Shown here: positions 19,823 through 57,600 of the stretch, piece after piece
Numbering within the stretch: the stretch's first letter is position 1
Layout: every line of letters begins with the position of its first letter
Origin: Torpedo marmorata
Lineage: Eukaryota
Length of the DNA: 64,000 bases
Assembly: GCA_977017645.1 (NCBI GenBank)
Contig: OZ360239.1
Coordinates: forward strand, 29,698,001 to 29,762,000
Direction: 5' to 3'
Made by a program: the position numbers and the translations under genes
The notes under the pieces: model-generated
What the model was told of the DNA's origin: nothing
Database searches by the model: none
The model's input: only the letters and a program-made list of their open reading frames with translations

Positions 19823-20422
19823 CAGGTGCCTAACCTTTTATCCGAAAACCAAACATTTTTTCCAGTATATTTTCAGGTGTTTAGCTTAGTTTGAGCCAGT
19901 TAATGTTTGAAGTTTTACTGTATGTTTTACTTAAAAATAAAAAGTACGCTAGTAATTTTATGGTCTATCTTTATCTCACTTAATTTACCACCCCTCCCTC
20001 CATCCAGCGCCGCTGCGAACACCCCCATCCAGCTCCGCCGCGAACACCCCCATCCAGCGCCGCCACCCCCCCGTCCAGCGCCGCCACCGCCCCTGTCCAG
20101 CGCCGCAAACACCCCCGCGAACACCCCCATCCAGCGCCGCCGCAACCCAGGGCCGCCGCGAACACCTCCGTCCAGCGCCGCCACCGCAAACACCCCTGTC
20201 CAGCGCCGCGAACACCCCCGTCCAGTGCCGCCGCGAACACCCCACCATCCATCGCCGCCATCCAGAAACCCTTCTCGATGGAGTGTGACTTTGTTTTGCA
20301 CGAATCTGAAGCAACGCAATTATTTAAAAGTACCGCCGTTAAAATAATTCTATAATCCGAAAAAATCCGAATTCCAAAAAGTGTCCGGTCCCAAGGTTTT
20401 TGGATAAAAGGTTAAGTACCTG
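19823..20422. mobile_element. Tc1/pogo-type MITE carrying a GC-rich minisatellite
   Basis: TIRs CAGGTGCCTAACCTTTTATCCGAAAACC / GGTTTTTGGATAAAAGGTTAAGTACCTG, flanked by TA. Internal CCAGCGCCGCC..CGAACACCCC repeats at ~19995-20265. Confidence 0.8.
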
Positions 20423-32205: not shown

Positions 32206-32406
32206 AAGCAGAAATTCTTTAAAATGCAAGAGCAGAGAATTAACAGCAGAAAAAAACAGATAGAAACATCTTGAGTTTTATACTTTTGAACAAATCTAAA
32301 TGGAAAGGCAAAAAATAAATTATGTACAAGGATAATGACAGATCACAGTTTGGATAGTATGCAATGTACCCCACTGCAGACATGACAATAAAATTATTAT
32401 ATGCAG

Positions 32407-32838
32407 TGTAGCGACTACTATCCATAAAAAAGCCGCTCAGAGGCTAAGTGGGCTCTTTACTGTGACGCATTAGAACAAAATCATATCGAAGTCCAGATGC
32501 GTTTTAAAACTCTTTATTAGTGAACCCAAAAGGACTCATAACGTGGTAACGATCATGAACCTAGTAACGATAACGTCTAACGATAACGTTCCTGATAATA
32601 TCGTAACGTCCTTGCTAACGTGACTAACGTCCGTGTAACGGTCAACAGAAAATATCAGAGCCTGACTCACCCACTGTCTGTCCCGCCATACCAGTCAACG
32701 TGGGCTAACTGAAATCCAAACGCGCAAAACCCACGCGCGTGCGCACCCGGCAGCAACAGAACGCGCGCAGCCTCCGGACCGCCGCCGATGCCCGCAGCCA
32801 AACCATCAACCACAAACAATGCACTTTTGGCTCCTACA
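32407..32838 (-). repeat. 3' LTR of the BEL/Pao element
   Basis: Direct repeat of 39256-39699. AATAAA on the minus strand at ~32513-32518. Confidence 0.92.
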
Positions 32839-33301
32839 ATACCGGCCCCTAATTATTATGTCTCAAATAATAATTACACAATTATAAATAACAATCAAAC
32901 ACAGTAAATTCCAATATTATGCAGATCTTCATTCTTCATAAGGCCAGAGGTTACTAGCACGTCGCCTTGAAAAAGAGTGATCTTTACCACCACTCTGGAC
33001 CAGTAAAGTTTGTAGTCTGTGTAGTGGGCAAGGTCCAAAAAACAACAAAATAAAGTCAGTTTTGGGTGTATAATTTTGCTTTCTATAATAGTATAGTAGC
33101 AGGCTTTAAGTATTGTAGCAAGGCTTCTCTAATGCCCAGATATCATTTTTTTTGCCTTTCACCTACATTCTATACTATCATATTCACCCAGGTTTCCCCC
33201 CAAAGCAGCACATCTGTAAATAGTATCCACACACCACCTATGTGCATTATTACAGGTTCAATGAGGCTAACTCCTTGGGTCTGCAGTATAAGCACTGATT
33301 G

Positions 33302-33820
33302 TTAACTGATTATTTTGCTCACAGATTGTAAGGTGGGAAACTCGTCATCTCAAAATGCAAAGTCTTGTGGGTAACAAAGTCTTTCTGGGCCAGCACCTGA
33401 TGGCACATTGGACACACCTGGCAGTCGAGCTCCAAGTTAACAGAAGTTTGCCATGCATTTTTCTTGTTCTTTTTTGATTTATTTGACACTTGTTTCTCCT
33501 GCATTATCAAGTGTTTGTGAGCAGAGAGAAGCTCCTGCTGCTTGGCTGTATCCGGCAGCTAAACAAGCGGTTCATTGAATATTTTCAGGAAATTTTCTCC
33601 CAGAATTCCTCTGCAATTCTTGTCATACTCTGAGCAGAAATCAGACCCTGTCTGAACTGTCCAGATTGAGTCCGAAATTTGTTGAATTTTGCTTCATCAT
33701 TGTGCAAAAATGTATTTATGGATTGAATTAGCTCAAAATTCCTCTGCTGAAAGTTCTCTGGAATGAGGTAAATGCTGGATGATGGTAGAGACTGTTTTGG
33801 TGCTGGAATCATAGGCTCGC
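33302..33820 (-). pseudogene. ZNF598: ZNF598 processed fragment, C-terminal part, followed by presumptive 3'UTR
   Basis: YLIPENFQQRNFELIQSI..FRQGLISA, LPDTAKQQELLSAH, KSKKNKKNAWQ, CQVCPMCHQVL and FPTLQSVSKIIS* match the ZNF598 C-terminus as I recall it. Intronless, with frameshifts. Confidence 0.9.
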
Positions 33821-34030
33821 TGACTAAAATGTAGCGACTACTATCCATAAAAAAGCCGCTCAGAGGCTGTGGGCTCTTTCCTGTGACGTGTTAGAACAAA
33901 TCATAGCTAAGTCCAGATGCGTTTTAAACTGTTTATTAATGAACACAAAAGGACTAGTAACGTCCATACAGCGTGGTAACGTCTATCGTATGTGGTAACG
34001 GTCAACAGAAAATATCGGAGCCCTACTCAC
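33821..34030 (-). repeat. Internal partial LTR (putative R-U5) plus 9 nt of leader
   Basis: Homologous to the LTR 3' half (TGTAGCGACTACTATCC at 33830). It includes TGACTAAAA, otherwise seen only just inside the 5' LTR (39247-39255). Confidence 0.88.
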
Positions 34031-35102
34031 CCTCCTTGTCTCTATTCCGCCACACCTTGCCCCTTGCTGATATAGATGCTCGAACAGCTGCGGCAACCTC
34101 TCTATCTTCTTCCTCCCTGCTATATTTCCATCTGCCTTGACGGTTTTGTCCTCTATTCTGGCCTCTTCTATTAAATCGATCCACTTCTTCATAATCTTCT
34201 CCACCCAAAATACGTTTGTTTCTCCTTTGATGCCGAGGAGCATAATTGAACTGTAGGTCAATCTGTCTATTCTGCCGGGCCTCTGCTCTGCTTTTGCTGT
34301 GGGAGGCAGCTTTATGTGCTTTGTAATCAATCTCAGAGCGAAAAGCATGAGTAAACTGTTCAGTGTTACAATGCTCTTCCTCACACAGATAATGCTTCTC
34401 ATGGAAATGATCACGAAGATAGTCATAATCACTATAATATTCTTGAGCACCATCAGAATCGCAGAAATGGCAAAAATAATGATCCCGCCTCAAATGTTTA
34501 AGTACCGGTAATTCATCATTATCCAGATAATGGTCATCACAGAATTTGCACAAAGGATGGCCACGATGGGAAGTATCATCTGGGTCACCATGTATTCGAT
34601 GCCGTGCAAGGTCCTTCCGACTGTACCATTTTCGTTCATAGCTAAAATCTGGAGGTGTCTTACACACAGCTTACAGCTAAACATCTCATGTTGCTTCCTC
34701 ATGTGATGCTCCAGTTCTTCAAAAGTATTAAAGGGTCTTGACTCAAGACATACTGAGCAGTCATGCTGCAGGAGTTTCCTGAATTGGGTATGATTCCTTC
34801 CATCTGCAATATAAATGTCATATTTCTTTTAATGGTAGAATTGATGAGTTGCTATTGTTGAAAATGGAGCAATTTTTTTCACATACACAACCTTGTCGAG
34901 CTCCAAGTGGCAGATGGCGCAGTACCTCTGGCCGCACAGGGCCCTCATCTTGGTGGAGCAGCGGTAGCAGACCGGGTGATCGCACTTGCCCACGGCGTAA
35001 ATCTCCAGCTCCTGGCAGCACAGGACACAGCTCATCAGCCCCGGCCGGGGCTGCGTGACCTTTCGCTCCGTCCCTCGAAGCAGCCCGACATTTGGAAGCC
35101 AT
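34031..35102 (-). pseudogene. ZNF598: ZNF598 processed fragment, N-terminal part (RING + C2H2 fingers)
   Basis: SCVLCCQELEIYAVGKCDHPVCYRCSTKMRALC..YCAIC RING, ERKWYSRKDLARHRIHGDPDDTSHRGHPLCKFCD, HYFCHFCD and HAFRSEIDYKAH. No introns. Frameshifts at ~35030 and ~34650 and a stop at ~34829. Confidence 0.93.
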
Positions 35103-35159
35103 GCTGGACGCAGCTCTCTCCAGAGGCCCCTCTTCAACCGGCTCACCCTTCCCCTCCCT

Positions 35160-38100
35160 GGCCTTGACTTGTACAGACACTATTGAGAGTTTGCAGTTAT
35201 CTTCACCGGCCCCAGTAAGACCACTTGTCTGAACAGAGGCTACAGCACTGTTTTCAGCTGCTTCCTTTATTTCTGCTTGCTCCTTTTCCATTTCCTTCTT
35301 TCTTTGGTGGATATGCAACATTCTGGGATGCTTTAAACCGCATATGTTGCAGCTAAGTCGCTTCCTGCAGTTTTTGCTGATGTGTCCTTTACACAGACAG
35401 CCAAAACATACTCCATTTTCTTTTAGGAAAGCGATTTTCTCACTATGCGCCCTCTTTTCCAACTGTGGACACATCTCCAAAGCATGTCCACCTCCACAGA
35501 GCAAACAGCTCTTCACAGCAGGAAAACTCTCCTTTTCCTTAGTTCCTTTATCATTTTCCTTATCTGCAACTGTCACAGTGGTGGCAAAGGTACTTCCTTT
35601 TATTCTTGAATGAGGCTGTGACTTGGACCTCCTTACATCTTTGCTCAATGTTGGAGTGTCTTTGACATCTCCAAATACTGGATCTTTTGCAATCTGCACT
35701 TGCCATTCAAAGAAATCCACCATATCTTTAAAGGGAGCTCTCTGATTGTGTTTTGCCTGGAACTTACAGGCCACAGTTCTCCATATATCCCTCAGCCGGT
35801 AGGGCAACTTCCTTATGATGACTAGCATATTAGCAGGCATGTCAAGCTCATGCATGTAGTTGATATCTTCCATGGCATTTCAACATCCTCTTAGAAAGAG
35901 GGCGTGTGCCTGTAGAGCCTTTGTGTCATCCGGTTTTATTGACGACCATGAAAGAGCCTTCTCCATATAAGCTGTAGCAATTTTATGCTCGTTGCCAAAA
36001 TGCTCCTGTAGTAAAGACTTAGTCTTCCCGAATCCTCTGTCCGAGGCCATATGTTGGCAACTCCTTACAAGTTCCCTTGGCTGTCCTTTTGTGTACTGTT
36101 CCAGATAATAGAGACAATCTCTGGGGTTTTTGTTCTTGCTTTCAATACTGTGTTCAAAGGATTTAATGAACACTTGGTACTGAAGTGGGTCACCATCAAA
36201 AACTTGAATCTCTTTTTTGGGCATGGAAGAGAGACACTGTAGCTGGATTAATAATGCAGTGATTTCATTTAGCCTTTCCATGACTGAGAGTACGTTGCTC
36301 TGTTCACCGTTGCTTGTAGCAGGTAATGTAGCCGGAGATGTCACATGTGCATGTTCACCCGGATTTCTGATGCTTGACTGGAGTGTCAAGGGAGCTGTGG
36401 TGAGCTTGGAAAGATCGAGGGTGATTTACTTAGATGGAAAAGCCTGTCCATCATATTCGTGGGCAGGGTAAACTGTATCAAAATGGTGGTGATGCCAAAA
36501 CTCCAATATCTCTTTCAATCTTTAACTATACCTTTGCCACAAACCTTTTTTAAAACACTCAATGGATGTGTAAGACAGTTTATTTGTAATGGCAAAGTTT
36601 CTAGAATCTCCATGGAAAAGATGATGTGGGATTATAAACTGGGGGGGTTTACGATTACCGGATTTTAAGAAATACTATTATTTAGCAGACCAGTCAAGGT
36701 TTCTTCTAACTTTTTTTTTTTGAGGAGGTTGATACCCCTCCATGGGTCCAAATTGGACTGAACGCTACAGGGGAGAAAATAGCTAAAGATTTTGTTTACA
36801 AATGGAATACTGATAATATCCAAAAGAACGGATAATCCCATTCTGAAGCATATGGTTAAAATCTGGCAAGAACTTAATGACTGTATTGGAGAAAAAGTTG
36901 GAATATCTCCCAATACACCTGTTTCAAAACGAACTTATACCCATGAATCTGGGCAACAAAATATGGGAAAATTGGTACCAAAAGGGGATTCGTTATATTG
37001 AGGATTGCTATCACAATGAAAAACTCATGTCCTTCGAACAACTTAGAGATAAATATGATTTGTCTTATAGAACCTTTCACTGTTTTCTCCAATTAAGATC
37101 CTTTTTGTGAGAAAGGTGGGGGCCTACAATGACCCCACCTATTAGCAACGAGGTGCAGCAGATACTTCGACTGGGAAACTCACTCAAATTTACATCCAGA
37201 ATGTACTTTGTTTTACAAAGTGAAAGCCCTAAACCAGGTATAGATAGGTCGAGGGAGAGGTGGGAGTCAGATCTGGGTACAACAATTCACGAACGTTACT
37301 GGTCAGACTGGTGTAGGCATAGTGTGACGGCGGTTATTAATGCCAGATAAAAACTGATCCAGTATAATTTCTTTCACCAATTATATCTTACACCGCAAAA
37401 ACTACACAAATCTAAACCTGAAATATCGGAGATGTGTTTTGGATGTGGTGTAGAAACTGGAACTTTTCTGCACTCCACTTGGTCCTGTGTAAAGGTACGC
37501 CCCTTTTGGCATGACATATCTAATACACTAACCAGAATTACAGGGGTAAACTTTCCACTGCACCCGGAGTTGTATCTTTTAGGAAATTTAATGGACATAA
37601 GCTACAAATTATCTAAATTTCAAATTCAATTTGTAACGGTTGCTTTGTCCGTGGTAAAGAAATGTATAGCAATAACTTGGAAGTCCGACTCCCCCCTTCT
37701 AATCACTCGATGGTCAACAGAAATGCGCAGCTGTATTCCCATGGAGAAAATTACATATAGTATCAGGAATAAATACGATACATTTGTTAAGGTGTGGCAA
37801 CCATACCTGGAGTATATTGGGGTCCAGTTATAACTCAAACTTCAAGGTACAGCAAAATGTAATGTATAACAAATTAATGGTGCGACATCTCCAAAAAGAT
37901 GGGAAAAGCAATGTCAGCACTGACGGTACGTTTAATTTTCTTTTATTTTATTTGTAATTTCTGTTTTTTAGGTTTTGTTTTTTCCTCTTTAGTTGGGGGG
38001 AGGGAAGGGAAATTTTAAAATAATGTTGTATATAATTGGAAATGGTACAATTATGTTTAAATTGCTAATCTTTTTGTGAAAAATGAAAAAATAAAATATT

Positions 38101-38808
38101 CAAAAAAAAGGGAGCTGTGGTGAGAGATTGGATTTGAGCTACAGCTCTGTCTGCAGTTGTTATTATTGGTGTTTGTGGATTGGTAACACTGTGCTTTGGG
38201 AGGATTCGTCCACGTGCATGCATGTCTTGTAACTGTGGTACAAAAGGGTTTGCCTTAACATTAAGTGTTTTCTTTTCCTGTTGTCCTTTCTCAAAATATG
38301 AGTCCATACCATCAGACACTTCAGATAAGTTACTTCGAACACCAGATCCCTTTGAGGCTCCAAGAACCTTCACTTTGGCCATAGTAGCAGCAATGTTTGC
38401 TTCCAGCTCAAGCTGCTCTTCCAAGGCATATTTACCTTTAAGCAATTTTTGTCATACAACAAGAGCAGCCACTTCAGCCTCAGCCTTTATACGTGCAGAT
38501 GTAATACTGGAAACTCTGGAGCTTGATCCAGAAGAACTTAGATTGCTTCTCCTGCTTCCAACATTTGACACACTGTCACCTGGTTGTATTTCATCCTGCA
38601 TGTCAGATGTTGCCTTAATATTTAACTCTTTCTCCAGTTTGAATTGCACATCCTTTGCATTTTCATCCTCTTCACCACCATTTTGTGACACACCTTCAGC
38701 TATTTCCAAGTTGTTGACTTTAAATTCAGTCAATGTCTTCTGCAGTGGTTTTAATCGCGCCTCAGCGGCGACGCCAGTAGCAGCGGCAGCCATTTTACGC
38801 GTCTCCAT
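35160..38808 (-). pseudogene. BEL/Pao gag, interrupted by an L1 and two nonsense codons
   Basis: EIQPGDSVSNV, FDGDPLQY..F, LYYLEQYTKG, and knuckles CLLCGGGHALEMC / CFGCLCKGHISKNC / CNICGLKHPRMLH. Ends at LSIVSVQVKA, just before the expected protease. One reading frame once the L1 is removed. Confidence 0.9.
36405..38107 (+). mobile_element. 5'-truncated L1 inserted in BEL gag
   Basis: GRVNCIKMVVMPKLQYLFQ...CFGCGVETGTFLHSTWSC..IPMEKITY plus poly(A). 17-bp TSD AAGGGAGCTGTGGTGAG at 36388 and 38108. Confidence 0.92.
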
Positions 38809-39255
38809 CCAACCGTCCGCCAAGCTCGAGCACCAAGCACGCACAACACAAGCCCAAAATCAACAGTCTCCAATGGACAAGCGGCAGCTCAACCAAACTT
38901 CGTTCAAACCAAATAAATACAGAAGGAATCCACCAATGTAATCCTACCGCTTCTGATGGCTGTGACGTGCTGCTGTCAACGAGCGAGTTTCCACCACAGC
39001 AGAGTCAATGATATCGCTGTGATTCTCGGCAAATGACTCTGCCAGCGTGTACATAAGTCATTCTGCTCTAGGATCAGAAGCCCTGGACCCCTCTGTGACC
39101 GATGCTCAGACCGATGGAGGCGGATTGCTGTCAGCGGCCTGCACTCGGCATTTCCAACATGGCCGCCATATTGTTTTCAGTGTCGCTCCAAACCAAAGAG
39201 GGATGTTCCAACAATGTCCAATTCAATCCTGTTCAATATTTTCTGTTGACTAAAA

Positions 39256-39699
39256 TGTAGCGACTACTATCCATAAAAAAAAGCCACTCGGAGGCTAAGT
39301 GGGCACTTTACTGTGACACGTTAGAACAAATTCATATCGAAGTCCAGTTGCGTTTAAAACTGTTTATTGGTGAATCCAAAAGGACTCATAACGTGGTAAC
39401 GATCATGAACTGGGTAACGATAACGTCTAACGATAACGTTCCTGATAATATCGTAACGTCCTTGCTAATGGTCAACGGAAAATATCGGAACCCGACGCAC
39501 CCACCGTCTATCCCGCCATACCAGTCAACTCGGGCTAATTAAAATCCAACCGCGCGAAACCCACACGCATGCGCCAACCATCCGCTGTGAATAGCGCGTG
39601 CGCACCGGCAGCGACAGAACGCGCGCAGCCTCCGGACCCCGGAACACCGCCGATGCCCGCAGCCAAACCATCACAAACAATACACTTTTGGCTCCTACA
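39256..39699 (-). repeat. 5' LTR of the BEL/Pao element
   Basis: Direct repeat of 32407-32838 with several substitutions and indels. TG..CA ends. Confidence 0.92.
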
Positions 39700-39850
39700 T
39701 GCAGCATTGGTTCACCAGGATATTAACTTTAGGCGTGGATGATAAAATCTAAATATTGGAACAGAGAATGCCTGATCAATATAGATTCAGGAGTTACTGC
39801 ACATAGAAAATTAGAATACAGAACATTTTGCTTCAAAGAGTACTTGGGAT

Positions 39851-49500: not shown

Positions 49501-50615
49501 GATCAAGATGTTACAAAAATTGATAATTTTTTATCTAAAATTACATTGCCTAAATTAAATAATTTTAATAGAGATTTGTTAGATTTACCTATTACAATGA
49601 GAGAAGTAGTTGAAGCTTTATCGACATTGAAAAGTGGTAAATCTCCTGGTGATGATGGATTTCCGATAGAGTTTTATAAGAAGTTTAAAGATTTACTGAT
49701 ACCTATATATATTGTTATGGACCATGACTGACCATTTGGACTGCGGACAGTTAGCAGGAAGGATGAATTCTTTTGGAGTATACACTGGGGCCAGGAACTG
49801 AAAGAGTTAACTTCCCCAGCTACTTGGTGTACCCAGACAAGATACATTGTTGCACACTTTTGATGTACCCAGACAGAGAGAGACAGAGAGAGACCAGAGA
49901 GAGCCTGGACAAGATACATTTGTTTCACTTCTGCAAAAAGCAGGGGCAGATCTCTGCAAAGCAGACAGTTGTGAGTTGCAAGGCTACAGAAGAGCCAGAT
50001 CCAGGTTTGTGTGCAAAAGTCAGAGAAGGACTGACAGAATAGCACATGGCCTCCTGTCTCAGAGAAAAATTCTGAGAATAGCAACTTCTGTGGAGAACAG
50101 GCGTGAGATCAGCGAGACAAGCTGTGAGATTCAAGCATACGCCTAAATCAGTGGTATACTGATCTGGAACTTGCAATCCTTATGAACCTACAAGAAGGGG
50201 ACGTCATCAGAGAAGGAAACAAGTATTTGTAAGCATAACAGTCATTGTCTCTCTCCAACGTTCATTCAGAAGTACTTCTACCAGACCCAGAGTTGAAGTG
50301 AAGCCTGAACTTAGAGAGTGAATCTTGTGGACTGTTTATCTTTTTTTTTGACTGACTTGTTGTTTTATGACTGACCTGGAGTTTTTGGGGAAAGTTTTTC
50401 CATTTTTTCATAAGGGTTGGGCACAGACTGTAATGGTCTGGGCTTTACACACACACACATACACCTTTTAGATAAGAATAGAGTTTATAGACGTTTATAG
50501 TGGGGTTAATTGTTGTGAAATTATATGTTTACTTGTGTTTAATAAATAATAATTTCAATTTTTACCCCTTTTGCATTGCGTCTTCTGTCGTTGCTGGTTT
50601 GATTCAGTAACAAAT

Positions 50616-50743: not shown

Positions 50744-53700
50744 ATGGATGTAGAACATTTTTTGGAATCACCTGAACCTGATACTTTAAAAAAGGCGAAA
50801 AAGGAACAGTTAGTGGCTATAGCAAAAGAGTTGGGCATTGCTTCTGTAAAACCATCTATGAAAAAGGCAGAGATTGGGAGAAAAATAGTCAAATACTATA
50901 TAAAAGAAAAAAAAATTTGAGGAGAGCATGTTAGAGCAGTTTCCCAAGGGTAAACCTTCTGAAAACATACAATTGGAAATAAAGAAATTGGAATTGGAAC
51001 AAAAGAACAGGGAATTGGAGGCAGACAGGGAACAAAAGAACAGGGAATTGGAACAAAAGAACAGGGAATTGGAGGCAGACAGGGAACAAAAGAACAGGGA
51101 ATTGGAACAAAAGAAATTAGAAATGGAGATAGACAGAGAACAAAAGAGATATGAGAACGAGGAGAAAAATAGGAAATATGAGCTGGAAAAGATGAGGTTG
51201 GAAAATGAGAGGAGACAAGAAGAGCACCAAAATCAAATTCGTCATCCTGCTGAGGGGTTTTTGGCTAGTAGAGAAGTTAGGTTGGTTCCTCCATTTGAGG
51301 AGGCAGAAATAGATAAGTACTTCCAACATTTTGAGAAAGTGGCTGTGAAATTGAAATGGCCACAAGACCAATGGTCTCTTATGTTACAAAGTGTAATTAA
51401 AGGAAAAGCTCAGCAAGCTTATTCTACTCTTACCACAGAACAAGCTGCTGATTATGAAATGGTGAAGAAGGCTATACTCCAGGCTTATGAGTTAGTTCCA
51501 GAGGCTTATAGACAGAAGTTTAGAAATCTAAAAAGATCAGCAACCCAATCTTATACAGAGTTTGCCTATGAAAAAGTTGTGTGTTTTGACAGGTGGTGCA
51601 CATCTAAGGAAGTAAACAATGATTACAATCAATTGAGAGAATTGATAATAATCGAGGAGATAAAAAGGTGTGTTCCTGAGGATATTAAGGCCTACTTAGA
51701 TGAAAAGGAGGTGAAAACTTGGCAAAATTCAGCTAAGTTAGCAGATGAATATGCTTTAACCCACAAGCCTAAGTGGACGTCAGGTAGAATTTTCCAAAAG
51801 GTCACGGTGGATAATCAGAAGCAAGTGGAAAGTAAATTTGGAAGCGGTGTTAAGGAAAGGGATGAAGGAAAGTGGAAAAGGGAAAACAATTCAGGTCCCA
51901 TTTGCCACTACTGTAGAAAGGAAGGTCATATAATAGCAAGCTGTCCAGTGTTGAAAAAGAAGAGAGAAAAGGATGCAACACCTAATGCTTGTATTCAGAG
52001 TGAGAAGAGGCATAACACCCAGGAAGGAGATAAATTTACTGACCAAGTTAAAGATGTATTTAAACCTTTTGTGACTGATGGTTTTGTTTCAGTTAAGGTA
52101 GGATCAAAACAAGTGCCAGTGAAAATCTTGCGAGATACTGGAGCTGCTCAGTCACTTGTGTTAGATAGTGTCTTGGAATTTTGTGAAGCTACTGACACCG
52201 GTGACATAAATTTAATAAAAGGAATTGGTGGTGAAGTTGAGTCCATTCCTTTGCACAAAATAGTATTGAACTCAGACTTGGTGGAAGGACCAGTTATAAT
52301 AGGAGTGAGATCAGAGTTGCCAGTAGAAGGAGTCTCACTGTTGTTAGGCAATGACTTGGCCAAGGGTAAAGTAGTTCCTGCAGTGCGAATGACCACTAAG
52401 CCAGTCATTGATAAGTCAGAGAAAGACTCTGATATTTATCCGGCATGTGCCATAACCAGGGCCATGTCTAAGAAAAATGTCACTGTAGAGAAGGCAGTGG
52501 AAAATAACTTGGAAAAAGAAAAAGAAACTGATAATCAAGAAAACCTGGAAAAGGTTGAGCAATCTCCTATGTTACACCCATCCACTGATAAGACACCTAA
52601 AGGCACAGATTTGTCACTATCCCGACAGGAGTTAATAGCAAGGCAAAAGGACGATCCGGATCTTGCTGAGGTGAGGGATAAGGTTCTCTCTGAAGAGGAG
52701 ATTAAAAAGGTGCCAGTAGGGTATTATGAAAAAGATGGGGTGTTGATGAGAAAGTGGAGACCACGTGATGTTCCTGCCAATGAAGAATGGGCAGTAGTGC
52801 AGCAGGTTGTGATCCCTAAAGTATATTGGGATGAAATAATAACTTTGGCTCATAGTACACCCTTAGGTGGTCATCTTGGGGTGAAGAAAACTATAAGTAA
52901 GATAATGAAACAGTTTTATTGGCCCAGTTTAAGAAGGGAGGTTGTAAGCTTTTGCCGGGCCTGTCACACTTGTCAGGTGGTGGGTAAACCTAATCAGGGT
53001 CCCCCGGTGGCACCCTTGCAACCTATCCCTGCGTTTAGTGAGCCTTTCTCGAGAGTAATTGTGGACTGTGTTGGCCCATTGCCCAAAACCAAGGCGGGGA
53101 ATGAGTATTTGTTAACAATTATGTGTGCAGCCACCAGATTTCCAGAGGCCATTCCTCTGAGAAACATAAAAGCAAAGTCAATTGTAAAGGCTATGGTAAA
53201 GTTTTTCACCTTGGTAGGTTTGCCAAGGGAAATTCAATCAGATCAGGGCAGTAATTTCATGTCAGGCGTTTTCCAACAAGTGGTTGATGGACTAGGAGTT
53301 AAACAGATTGTATCCTCTGCGTACCATCCAGAAAGTCAAGGGGCCTTGGAGAGGTTCCATTCGACTTTGAAAACCATGATTAGAACCTATTGTTGTGAGA
53401 AGGAAAAGGATTGGGATGAGGGGGTTCATTTGTTGTTATTTGCAGCGAGGGAGTCTGTCCAAAATTCGCTTGGTTTTAGTCCATTTGAGTTAGTTTTCGG
53501 ACATGAGGTGAGAGGTCCTTTAAGATTATTAAAAGAACAGTGGATTAATCGTGATGTGCATTTAAATCTGTTAGATTATGTTTCCAAATTTAAGGATCGG
53601 TTACATAGGGCTTGTGAGATGGGAAAGGAGAATTTAAAGGCCACTCAACAGAAAATGAAGGTTTGGTATGATCGAAAGGCGAAGATAAGAACTTTTAAAC

Positions 53701-54653: not shown

Positions 54654-57600
54654 ACTTTATCAATGAAAATAGTTCATATTTTGTATTTGTGGATGAACAT
54701 TGTAGATTTTGTTTATATTCTGACACCTCACTTACTTTCCTAAATTTTGTTCTTGCAGACCAAAATTTCCTTTGAGGGTGGGAGGTGTTATGGACCATGA
54801 CTGACCATTTGGACTGCGGACAGTTAGCAGGAAGGATGAATTCTTTTGGAGTATACACTGGGGCCAGGTACTGAAAGAGTTAACTTCCCCAGCTACTTGG
54901 TGTACCCAGACAAGATACATTGTTGCACACTTTTGATGTACCCAGACAGAGAGAGACAGAGAGAGACCAGAGAGAGCCTGGACAAGATACATTTGTTTCA
55001 CTTCTGCAAAAAGCAGGGGCAGATCTCTGCAAAGCAGACAGTTGTGAGTTCCAAGGCTACAGAAGAGCCAGATCCAGGTTTGTGTGCAAAAGTCAGAGAA
55101 GGACTGACAGAATAGCACATGGCCTCCTGTCTCAGAGAAAAATTCTGAGAAAAGCAACTTCTGTGGAGAACAGGCGTGAGATCAGCGAGACGAGCTGTGA
55201 GATTCAAGCATACGCCTAAATCAGTGGTATACTGATCTGGAACTTGCAATCCTTATGAACCTACAAGAAGGGGACGTCATCAGAGAAGAAAACAAGTATT
55301 TGTAAGCATAAACAGTCATTGTCTCTCTCCAACGTTCATTCAGAAGTACTTCTACCAGACCCAGAGCTGAAGTGAAGCCTGAACTTAGAGAGTGAATCTT
55401 GTGGACTGTTTATCTTTTTTTTTGACTGACTTGTTGTTTTATGACTGACCTGGAGTTTTTGGGGAAAGTTTTTCCATTTTTTCATAAGGGTTGGGCACAG
55501 ACTGTAATGGTCTGGGCTTTACACACACACACATACACCTTTTAGATAAGAATAGAGTTTATAGACGTTTATAGTGGGGTTAATTGTTGTGAAATTATAT
55601 GTTTACTTGTGTTTAATAAATAATAATTTCAATTTTTACCCCTTTTGCATTGCGTCTTCTGTCGTTGCTGGTTTGATTCTGTAACAATATGGAAGTATTG
55701 ACTCAAATAAAGGAAACTCATTTATTACCGAAAACATTTTTAAATGCTGTTATTACAGTTATACCAAAGAAAGATAGAGATGTATTAAAAACTGAGTCAT
55801 ACAGACCTATATCACTGTTGAATGTAGATTATAAATTAATGGCAAAAATTTTGACAAACAGATTAGCTAAGTTTTTACCGTTTTTAATACATCCAAATCA
55901 AGCAGGATTTATTAAAAATAGATATTCGAAGGATAATATAGCAAGATTAATAAGTTTAATTAATTTGCAAAAAAGGAAACAGGATTTACCGTTGGTGATA
56001 ACATTAGATGCAGAAAAAGCATTTGAAAGATTTGAATGGAATTTTTTATTTAAGGTTTTAGAGAAATATGGGTTTGGAAATACTTTTATAAATTGGATTA
56101 AGACTATATATAAGGAACCTACAGCTAGAGTAATTACAAATGGTCAGATATCATCTAAATTTTCCTTGACGCGATCAGCAAGACAAGGATGTCCTTTATC
56201 ACCTGCTTTATTTGTATTGGCAATAGAACCGCTGGCTGAAATGATTAGGAAAGATATCAATATAAATGGGATTAAGGTAGGTGCAGAAGAGCATAAAATT
56301 AGTTTATTTGCAGATGATGTATTAATATATATGACAAAATCTATTGGATCGCTTCAACAATTAGCTAAGATACTGAGGGAGTATGGTGAGATATCTGGTT
56401 ATAAAATAAATTCAGATAAGAGTGAAATAATGGCTTTATCTCAAGGAGATTATACTAAATGTAAAGAGGTTACAGGATTTAAATGGGCTAAAGAAGCAAT
56501 TAAATATTTGGGAGTTAAAGTAGATACAAAATTGGAAAATTTATATAAATTAAATTATATACCTCTATTTCAGAAAATAAAGAAAGATTTGGAAAATTGG
56601 AAAGATTTATCTATAACCCTAATGGGAAGAGTGAATTGTATTAAAATGAATATCTTTCCAAGAGTTCAATACCTTTTTCAATCTATACCTTTTGGAATTC
56701 CTCAAAAATTTTTTAAAGATTTAAAAATCATTGTTAGAAAATTTTTATGGAAAGGAAAATTAGCAAGGGTAAGTATGGATAAATTAACTTGGGAATATGA
56801 GATGGGTGGATTACAACTCCCCAATTTTCAATATTATTATAAGGCAGCACAATTAAAGTTTATTAATGAATTTTTTGATTTAACTAAATCTACTGCTTGG
56901 ATTAATATAGAATTGAATAATATAGGGGAAAGATATAAGGAAGATATTATTTATAAATGGAATTCTAAATTATTATTAGTTAAAAAGAAAAAATCACCGA
57001 TTATTAAACATTTACTGGAAATCTGGACTCAGTTAGACAATGAGATAGGACGAAAAGGGTCATTATCTTTGAATATGCCATTGTATCAGAATTTATTGTT
57101 ACCTTTTTCTATTGATAATCAATTTTTAAAATTATGGTTTCAAAAAGGAATTAAGAAGATTAAAGATTGTTTTGAGGCTGGAAGATTTGTTACATTTTCT
57201 AGGTTGAAAGAAAAATTTGGAATAATGGATAATACGATTTTGGCTTATTATCAGGTTTAAGGATTTTTAGTTGAGAAATTGGGGAATCAATTAATAACTC
57301 CTAGACAGGATGGATTAGAATTATTAATTACTAATGGAAATGTTAACAAGTTTATATCACAAATGTATAGATTACTTCAGAGAAAGATGCTTAAGGTAGG
57401 ATTGCATAAATCAAGATTAAATTGGGAATCAGATTTAAATATTAATATAGATGAAAAACATTGGAAAGAATTATGTAAATTGAGTATGACCAAAATTATT
57501 AATGTTAGATATAGATTAGTACAATATAATTTTTTTCATCAATTATATTTAACACCTAAAAAATTAAAGAAATTTAATCCGGCACTATCAGATATGTGTT

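Follow-up and report, generated by a model that had tools for sequence, protein, structure and literature searches.

A dead BEL/Pao retrotransposon of Torpedo marmorata with two spliced pieces of ZNF598 and a partial LTR in place of pol

How does a gene that is spread over some 74 kb at its home locus come to lie, without its introns, between the long terminal repeats (LTRs) of a retrotransposon? The question is raised by a 64,000-nucleotide stretch of the Torpedo marmorata genome, here called the window (GCA_977017645.1, contig OZ360239.1, positions 29,698,001 to 29,762,000; G000:C52:29698001-29762000 in our notation for the 6.2-Gb assembly). Its minus strand carries a BEL/Pao element in which sequence from ZNF598 occupies the place of pol. 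An earlier note on this DNA had proposed that a spliced ZNF598 mRNA, running from 5' untranslated region (UTR) to stop codon, was transduced by such an element, a proposal that is real in outline and wrong in detail. The explanation favoured here, with a probability of roughly 0.7, is that the element is dead and non-autonomous, that two spliced ZNF598 pieces and a partial LTR took the place of its pol through template switching by reverse transcriptase (RT), and that it integrated as one unit, with likely re-copying thereafter. The parts of the locus are listed below; its four internal junctions are numbered J1 to J4 along the element.

32402-32406, no strand: left copy of the target-site duplication (TSD), TGCAG, the letters adjoining the 3' LTR
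32407-32838, minus strand: 3' LTR, TG...CA, from the LTR pair alignment and LTR comparison
32839-33066, minus strand: 3' internal end of BEL, with the last codons of the integrase region, the 3' untranslated part and a word like a polypurine tract (PPT)
33060-33823, minus strand: ZNF598 3' piece, with the last 33 nt of exon 10, spliced exons 11-12 and about 240 nt of 3'UTR; PAH domain; frame broken
33821-33829, minus strand: first 9 nt of the primer-binding region that follows an LTR, 3 nt of them common with ZNF598 at J3
33830-34056, minus strand: third LTR, partial (3' 227 nt), of another subtype than the outer pair
34057-35158, minus strand: ZNF598 5' piece, with 5'UTR, spliced exons 1-6 and the start of exon 7; RING and C2H2 regions
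35159-36404, minus strand: 3' part of gag (DUF1759, zinc knuckles) and first protease codons
36405-38107, plus strand: later 5'-truncated L1-type insertion with a short A tail and a 17-nt TSD (36388-36404 and 38108-38124)
38108-39255, minus strand: 5' part of gag (start near 38800), leader, and primer-binding region at 39236-39255 without TGG
39256-39699, minus strand: 5' LTR; a 15-mer at 39471-39485 is complementary to the primer-binding region at 14/15 positions
39700-39704, no strand: right copy of the TSD, TGCAG, the letters adjoining the 5' LTR

The frame of this structure is that of a BEL/Pao LTR retrotransposon, a group whose named superfamilies are Suzu, Sinbad, Dan, BEL, Pao, Tas and Flow. 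As the earlier note had described, two LTRs lie inside a 5-bp TSD, the family's PPT-like word precedes the 3' LTR, and gag is of BEL type (PF03564, E 9e-10, with Cys/His motifs visible in the 34818-35879 frame). The outer LTRs are identical at 377/405 aligned sites, with 65 gap columns and a Kimura two-parameter distance of 0.073. In a comparison of 31 LTR rows (28 from family loci, two of those 28 being the same LTR), they are each other's nearest match, and the middle LTR is closer to other copies; the possibility that the outer pair was drawn from two different elements was rejected on this evidence. Further copies of both BEL families treated here are likewise flanked by 5-bp TSDs.

Relatives that are 93-95% identical over gag encode RT, Peptidase_A17, integrase and DUF5641 domains, which marks the family's pol as Pao-type. 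A search with the family's 3' end returned 2,144 first-look candidates (such candidates are not copy numbers), of which 40 were scored, and several of the 18 family loci examined have integrase upstream. In the window copy, RT, RNase H and integrase domains were not found, and the approximately 3,950 nt of pol that an autonomous copy has between the outer switch points J1 and J4 are missing. ZNF598 thus does stand in place of pol, and the reported loss of pol functions holds for these three domains; for protease it needs amending, as the first few codons are kept, without the catalytic motif. The enzymes for integration were likely supplied by autonomous relatives. What had been overlooked is the L1-type insertion that interrupts gag. 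Its site is empty in a related copy on contig C62, and the joint 36387-38108 is seen in contigs of all four public runs. An L1-type copy 81% like it lies in intron 3 of the parental ZNF598 gene (G000:C56:16414947-16416412), probably by coincidence in a repeat-rich genome.

The parental gene was located by tblastn at G000:C56:16406734-16480622, in 12 coding blocks. Alignment of the window copy to this gene shows eight exon joins, six in the 5' piece and two in the 3' piece, which coincide with GT-AG boundaries of the parent; the introns have been lost, as had been proposed. The best protein matches of the ZNF598 sequence are from rays (Narcine 95%, Hypanus 93%, Pristis 93%), and the RING and PAH domains of ZNF598 are detected in it. 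Differences from the parent amount to 39 in 1,095 sites of the 5' piece and 29 in 763 sites of the 3' piece, so that the copy is about 96% identical to the parent, with 3.6-4.0% divergence plus private indels. A 53-nt piece 85% like exon 5 of ZNF598 was also seen within intron 6 of the parent itself (G000:C56:16438544-16438596).

The captured sequence, from an ATG at 35100-35102 to a stop codon at 33302-33304, is not the continuous copy that the earlier note had assumed. It lacks exons 8-9 and the greater part of exons 7 and 10 (residues ~352-699 of the 874-aa Hypanus protein), and in place of this middle, about 1.08 kb of coding sequence, stand the partial third LTR and 9 nt of primer-binding site. 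Both pieces are collinear with an RNA-like contig of a related organism, parent-type ZNF598 mRNA, in which 1,081 nt separate them and a further 2,446 nt follow the captured 3' end. The expected 3'UTR is therefore present only as its first ~240 nt, and the end of the mRNA, with its poly(A), was never reached. Neither poly(A) nor a separate TSD was found around the ZNF598 part of the window copy, in agreement with the earlier note, which argues against a retrocopy made by L1: the poly(A) tail and TSD that such a processed pseudogene has of its own are lacking. A spliced mRNA in place of part of an open reading frame, with both LTRs retained, is the pattern of an LTR-mediated retrocopy.

The captured frame is no longer functional. 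In the window it has a frameshift near codon 24, before the RING, a stop at codon 92 and a further frameshift near codon 154, and the ZNF598 sequence on C62 has deletions of 21, 38 and 11 nt. Private coding changes (non-synonymous or stop to synonymous) number 17:11 in the window copy on C52 and 17:3 on C62, or 34:14 in total; the non-synonymous share expected under neutrality is 0.73-0.80 (p 0.75 and 0.15). The ZNF598 copies are in neutral decay, and the open frame under purifying selection that characterises a functional retrogene or a fusion of gag-onc type was not found. No RNA data set was listed as containing the sequence, a result that speaks neither for nor against expression. The copies differ from the commonest letters of their family at about 3-5% of gag columns, which is similar to the distance of the ZNF598 sequence from its parent, and the capture can therefore be dated to the burst of the family.

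The junctions, whose overlaps were read by eye against the modern parent and family copies, bear the marks of template switching. Exact overlaps measure 1 nt at J1 (protease to ZNF598, 35158/35159), 1 nt at J2 (exon 7 to LTR), 3 nt at J3 (primer site to exon 10) and 4 nt at J4 (3'UTR to the BEL 3' end), or 7 nt at J4 if one mismatch is allowed. Two related junctions elsewhere in the genome, ZNF598 to integrase on C62 and ZNF598 to TIMP on C43, have overlaps of 5 and 2 nt. Overlap sums of this size have a probability of 0.01 in random pairs for the four window junctions and 0.0003 for all six, and thus microsimilarity at the switch points exceeds chance. Of the first 11 captured bases at J1, in addition, 9 agree in register with the BEL bases that they displaced (0.00028 per random pair). 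J1 carries the gag frame into the ZNF598 ATG in 3/3 copies, for which chance alone gives one in three. On the element strand, the middle LTR (start 33830) is followed by the same primer-site bases as the 5' LTR, and J3 falls inside what is described below as a putative self-priming site.

The J1 junction is not confined to the window. A search with its pattern gave 254 matches with at most 2 mismatches, of which exactly three have no mismatch; they lie on three contigs (C43, C52 and C62) with different surroundings, and 97 other matches listed are the native word of the family. All ten of the ten candidates scored in a search with the ZNF598 5' piece belong to the window, the parent, C62 or C43. 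The C62 copy has gag without the L1, ZNF598 to the middle of exon 5, then BEL integrase, PPT, a 3' LTR of its own and a different flank. On C43 (G000:C43:11683628-11684290) a 660-nt block without LTRs lies inside a broken long interspersed nuclear element (LINE), ~80 nt of which are lost; it consists of 82 nt of BEL gag/protease, 110 nt of ZNF598, and spliced TIMP from its apparent 5' end to exon 3. The 3' piece (4/4 candidates) and exon 9 (1/1 candidate) were found nowhere beyond the window or parent, with exon 9 in the parent only, which makes the exact structure of the window single-copy. A further intronless TIMP copy, which starts at the same TIMP 5' position, is present at G000:C22 ~27188600-27189520; it was considered as another BEL capture and rejected, since it sits beside but outside a family B LTR pair.

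The favoured series of events would begin with a ZNF598 mRNA packaged together with BEL RNA in one particle. RT would have quit the BEL RNA at a point 217 nt short of the 3' LTR, copied along the mRNA as far as roughly its 5' end, and returned to the BEL RNA at the 9-of-11 match where protease begins. The chimeric RNA would then have been transcribed and copied again, giving daughters of different structure. In the window daughter, an LTR end and primer site from another BEL subtype may have taken the place of the middle of ZNF598; in the C62 daughter, RT may have switched back into integrase; and the C43 fragment may have been joined to a spliced TIMP mRNA. Insertion of the L1 into gag of the window copy would have followed later. 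Capture by template switching and integration as one unit are supported by the loss of introns, the replacement of pol, the microhomology, and a TSD that lies outside mutually nearest LTRs. Capture during reverse transcription and one-unit integration, both already proposed, are upheld in this form, with four switches rather than two, a second BEL template, and a gene that is partial and dead. Given capture, one origin with re-copying is quite probable, on account of the base-exact same junction, the shared 5'UTR deletions and parsimony.

A number of observations weigh against this reconstruction. The start of the middle LTR lies 41 nt upstream of the putative self-primer, a poor fit to the idea that this LTR was the 5' end of a genomic RNA. 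No 5' LTR of the C62 copy, and hence no second TSD, was found in the 60 kb examined; the searches also revealed no other copy with J2-J4 or exon 9, and no full-length founder. In a gag tree of 15 rows, which has the form of a star, C52 and C62 are not joined, and of the rare letters in two gag segments (21 and 18 rows) these two copies have 0 and 2 in common; as proof of a single origin, both lines were set aside as an uninformative star. Two amino-acid differences from the parent that the copies share were discarded for the same purpose, being changes in the parent, since by outgroup proteins the copies have the ancestral state. J1 is likely a hot spot, and descent of the three J1 copies from one event is not proven. 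The junction search suggested by the earlier note thus finds the same J1 at three loci, without the shared derived letters or the second TSD by which transposition of the chimera itself would be recognised. These points leave room for three independent captures at one hot spot, formed by the mRNA 5' end and the 9-of-11 match, with the four window junctions arising in one round of reverse transcription. Counted by eye, J1 is among the ~3 best sites for the first 11 nt of the mRNA in the 8.9-kb element, and recurrent switch sites have been published for BLASTOPIA (PMC5131818). Such a history is nevertheless unlikely: the same mRNA must be caught three times at the same base, and all three copies share two small 5'UTR deletions and 5' substitutions relative to the parent, changes that are not polarised.

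The middle LTR could also have arrived by other means. If a two-switch capture came first, a second BEL element inserted in the same direction, followed by two DNA deletions, could leave a partial LTR and 9 nt of primer site; this would account for its different subtype and for the inclusion of sequence upstream of the putative RNA start, and nested insertions are common in the family loci. It requires three events, one deletion having to end inside the primer-binding site, and neither a second internal region nor another 3' LTR has left any remnant, which makes it an improbable course. That L1 made a ZNF598 retrocopy that landed in a resident BEL element, with pol removed by deletions, is a notion already largely refuted and very hard to sustain. 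L1-type elements are abundant and active here, and the TIMP retrocopy on C22 does lie outside any LTR pair; against this stand the lack of poly(A) and TSD, a 3' end 2.4 kb short of the end of the related mRNA, the junction microhomology, and the recurrence of J1 at other loci where the 3' ends differ. Misassembly or contaminating cDNA would be suggested by J1-J4, which none of the public-run contigs among the matches listed bridges, and runs X3 and X4, with their small shares, gave no bridging piece among the matches listed. Run X1, whose kind was guessed as DNA and which may or may not be independent of the assembly, has a contig that spans the exon 4/5 join of the window type with 47 and 129 letters, 1 difference and no gap; another spans the exon 1/2 and 2/3 joins, and a third crosses the boundary between 5' LTR and flank, with 58 and 155 letters. 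A further X1 contig enters the 3' LTR by 27 letters only, below the acceptance threshold. Together with a TSD, three loci, and 3.6-4.0% divergence with private indels, this leaves an assembly artefact with next to no probability.

The element also bears on how its lineage primes reverse transcription. The 15-mer inside the LTR has its reverse complement in the bases that follow the 5' LTR, and no tRNA gene was found in the 64-kb window. Pairing was followed in the window and loci L080-L099 and L110-L139. In family A, the longest perfect pairing is 13-15 nt in 6/15 rows and at least 10 nt in 9/15, against shuffle maxima of 7-10, the site not being found in the slice in 2 of the 15. In the sister family B, both pairing sides differ at 4/15 positions and yet pair, over 10-14 nt in 9/10 5' LTR rows; pairing in 21 other rows is 5-9 nt. 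In the part of PMC6317226 consulted, a self-primer is recognised by an LTR stretch complementary to at least 10 nt starting 0-5 nt after the 5' LTR, and Tf1/Sushi, Tcn1 and TAR are named as self-priming elements. Both families show this Tf1-type complementarity. Like those elements, they appear to have no tRNA-type primer site, and an LTR-internal stretch of at least 10 nt pairs with the sequence just after the 5' LTR; the difference is that the lineage is BEL/Pao and the RNA start is putative. The pairing, with its compensatory changes, points to a putative Tf1-like self-priming in this BEL/Pao lineage, of which no report was found in the literature searched, including the portion of PMC3601003 consulted.

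Family B itself carries what looks like part of another host gene. Its LTR pairs lie 3.9-5.5 kb apart, with clear 5-bp TSDs in 3/4 copies fetched, and gag and protease are followed by a frame in place of RT and integrase (for example L140:4469-5581, G000:C51:21788268-21789380; also L141-L143 and L146-L175). This frame matches host MIPOL1, at 58% over 132 residues to Pristis (E 1.8e-32), and Pfam gave nothing clear for it; of the MIPOL1 parent, one exon only was located (C40:64507874-64507993). A DNA search yielded 5,557 first-look candidates, and the 40 scored are all 95-100% identical over nearly the full query. Across 30 copies, the commonest codon is never a stop at any position between protease and the end of the frame. 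Rare variants look neutral, and those present in at least 3 copies are without clear constraint in the MIPOL1-like part (10 non-synonymous to 4 synonymous). Family B appears to have spread to thousands of copies. There may be an even chance that these observations belong together, in a lineage that self-primes with no need of tRNA and has time and again exchanged pol for host mRNA in frame with gag-protease; the ZNF598 and TIMP captures would then be failed trials, and a MIPOL1-derived coiled-coil frame would have been kept open in the family B master and carried to thousands of copies.

Acutely transforming retroviruses provide gag-onc fusions such as v-Cbl, which contains a piece of an E3 ligase. 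These resemble the present case in that host sequence lies in frame with gag, pol is lost and a helper is needed; here, in contrast, there is no env, the captured frame has no sign of selection, and the window frame is broken before the RING.

Closer precedents were described by Tan et al. (2016; PMC5131818), whose account, in the parts consulted, covers LTR-mediated retrocopies in animals, including Pao/BEL captures (CG4799_CG11924_r in Pao BATUMI and ENSANGG00000011308 in BEL18_AG), multiple switches and re-transposition. In those cases, too, a partial spliced mRNA replaces part of the open reading frame, with microsimilarity at switches and without poly(A) or TSD; more than two switches, the joining of two genes, and several sites from one switch event also occur. 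The present case differs in its host, a cartilaginous fish outside that survey, in the partial LTR and primer site of another subtype that interrupt the captured gene, and in daughters that share one junction and differ at the other end. The same text cites maize Bs1 and human FAM8A1_r in HERV-K, which are likewise non-autonomous LTR elements with pieces of host mRNA, and Bs1 joins several genes. They belong to other element groups, whereas the ZNF598 copies are few and neutral; Bs1 has a closer parallel in the MIPOL1-bearing family. PMC3118150 sets out the BEL/Pao superfamilies and does not mention shark in the portion consulted. No ZNF598, MIPOL1 or ray case was found in the literature searched, the supplements of PMC5131818 lying outside its scope, so that a ZNF598 case there is possible. 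The ZNF598 chimera appears to be new; captures of its kind have been documented in flies and fish, and examples by Pao/BEL elements are already in print.

Elsewhere in the window, direct repeats at 49713-50536 and 54786-55610, 99-100% identical and ~5.07 kb apart, probably represent a young LTR element, and between them lies a 54-nt tandem coding-like repeat (50975-51147). A G+C-rich array of about ten 21-34-nt units is found at 19997-20260.

The ZNF598 copy itself does nothing now. Its significance is that it extends LTR-mediated retroposition to cartilaginous fishes and preserves what would be a series of recombination products from one capture, including a shuffle of two genes. Two side results, probable self-priming in BEL/Pao and the host-gene-bearing family B, may matter more than the chimera. 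If the view of the lineage set out above is true, it would give the vertebrates a family like Bs1, at very large scale, and add self-priming in a group from which it has not been reported. Tens of megabases of the 6.2-Gb genome may consist of family B, whose copies would be mistaken in annotation for thousands of MIPOL1 paralogs.

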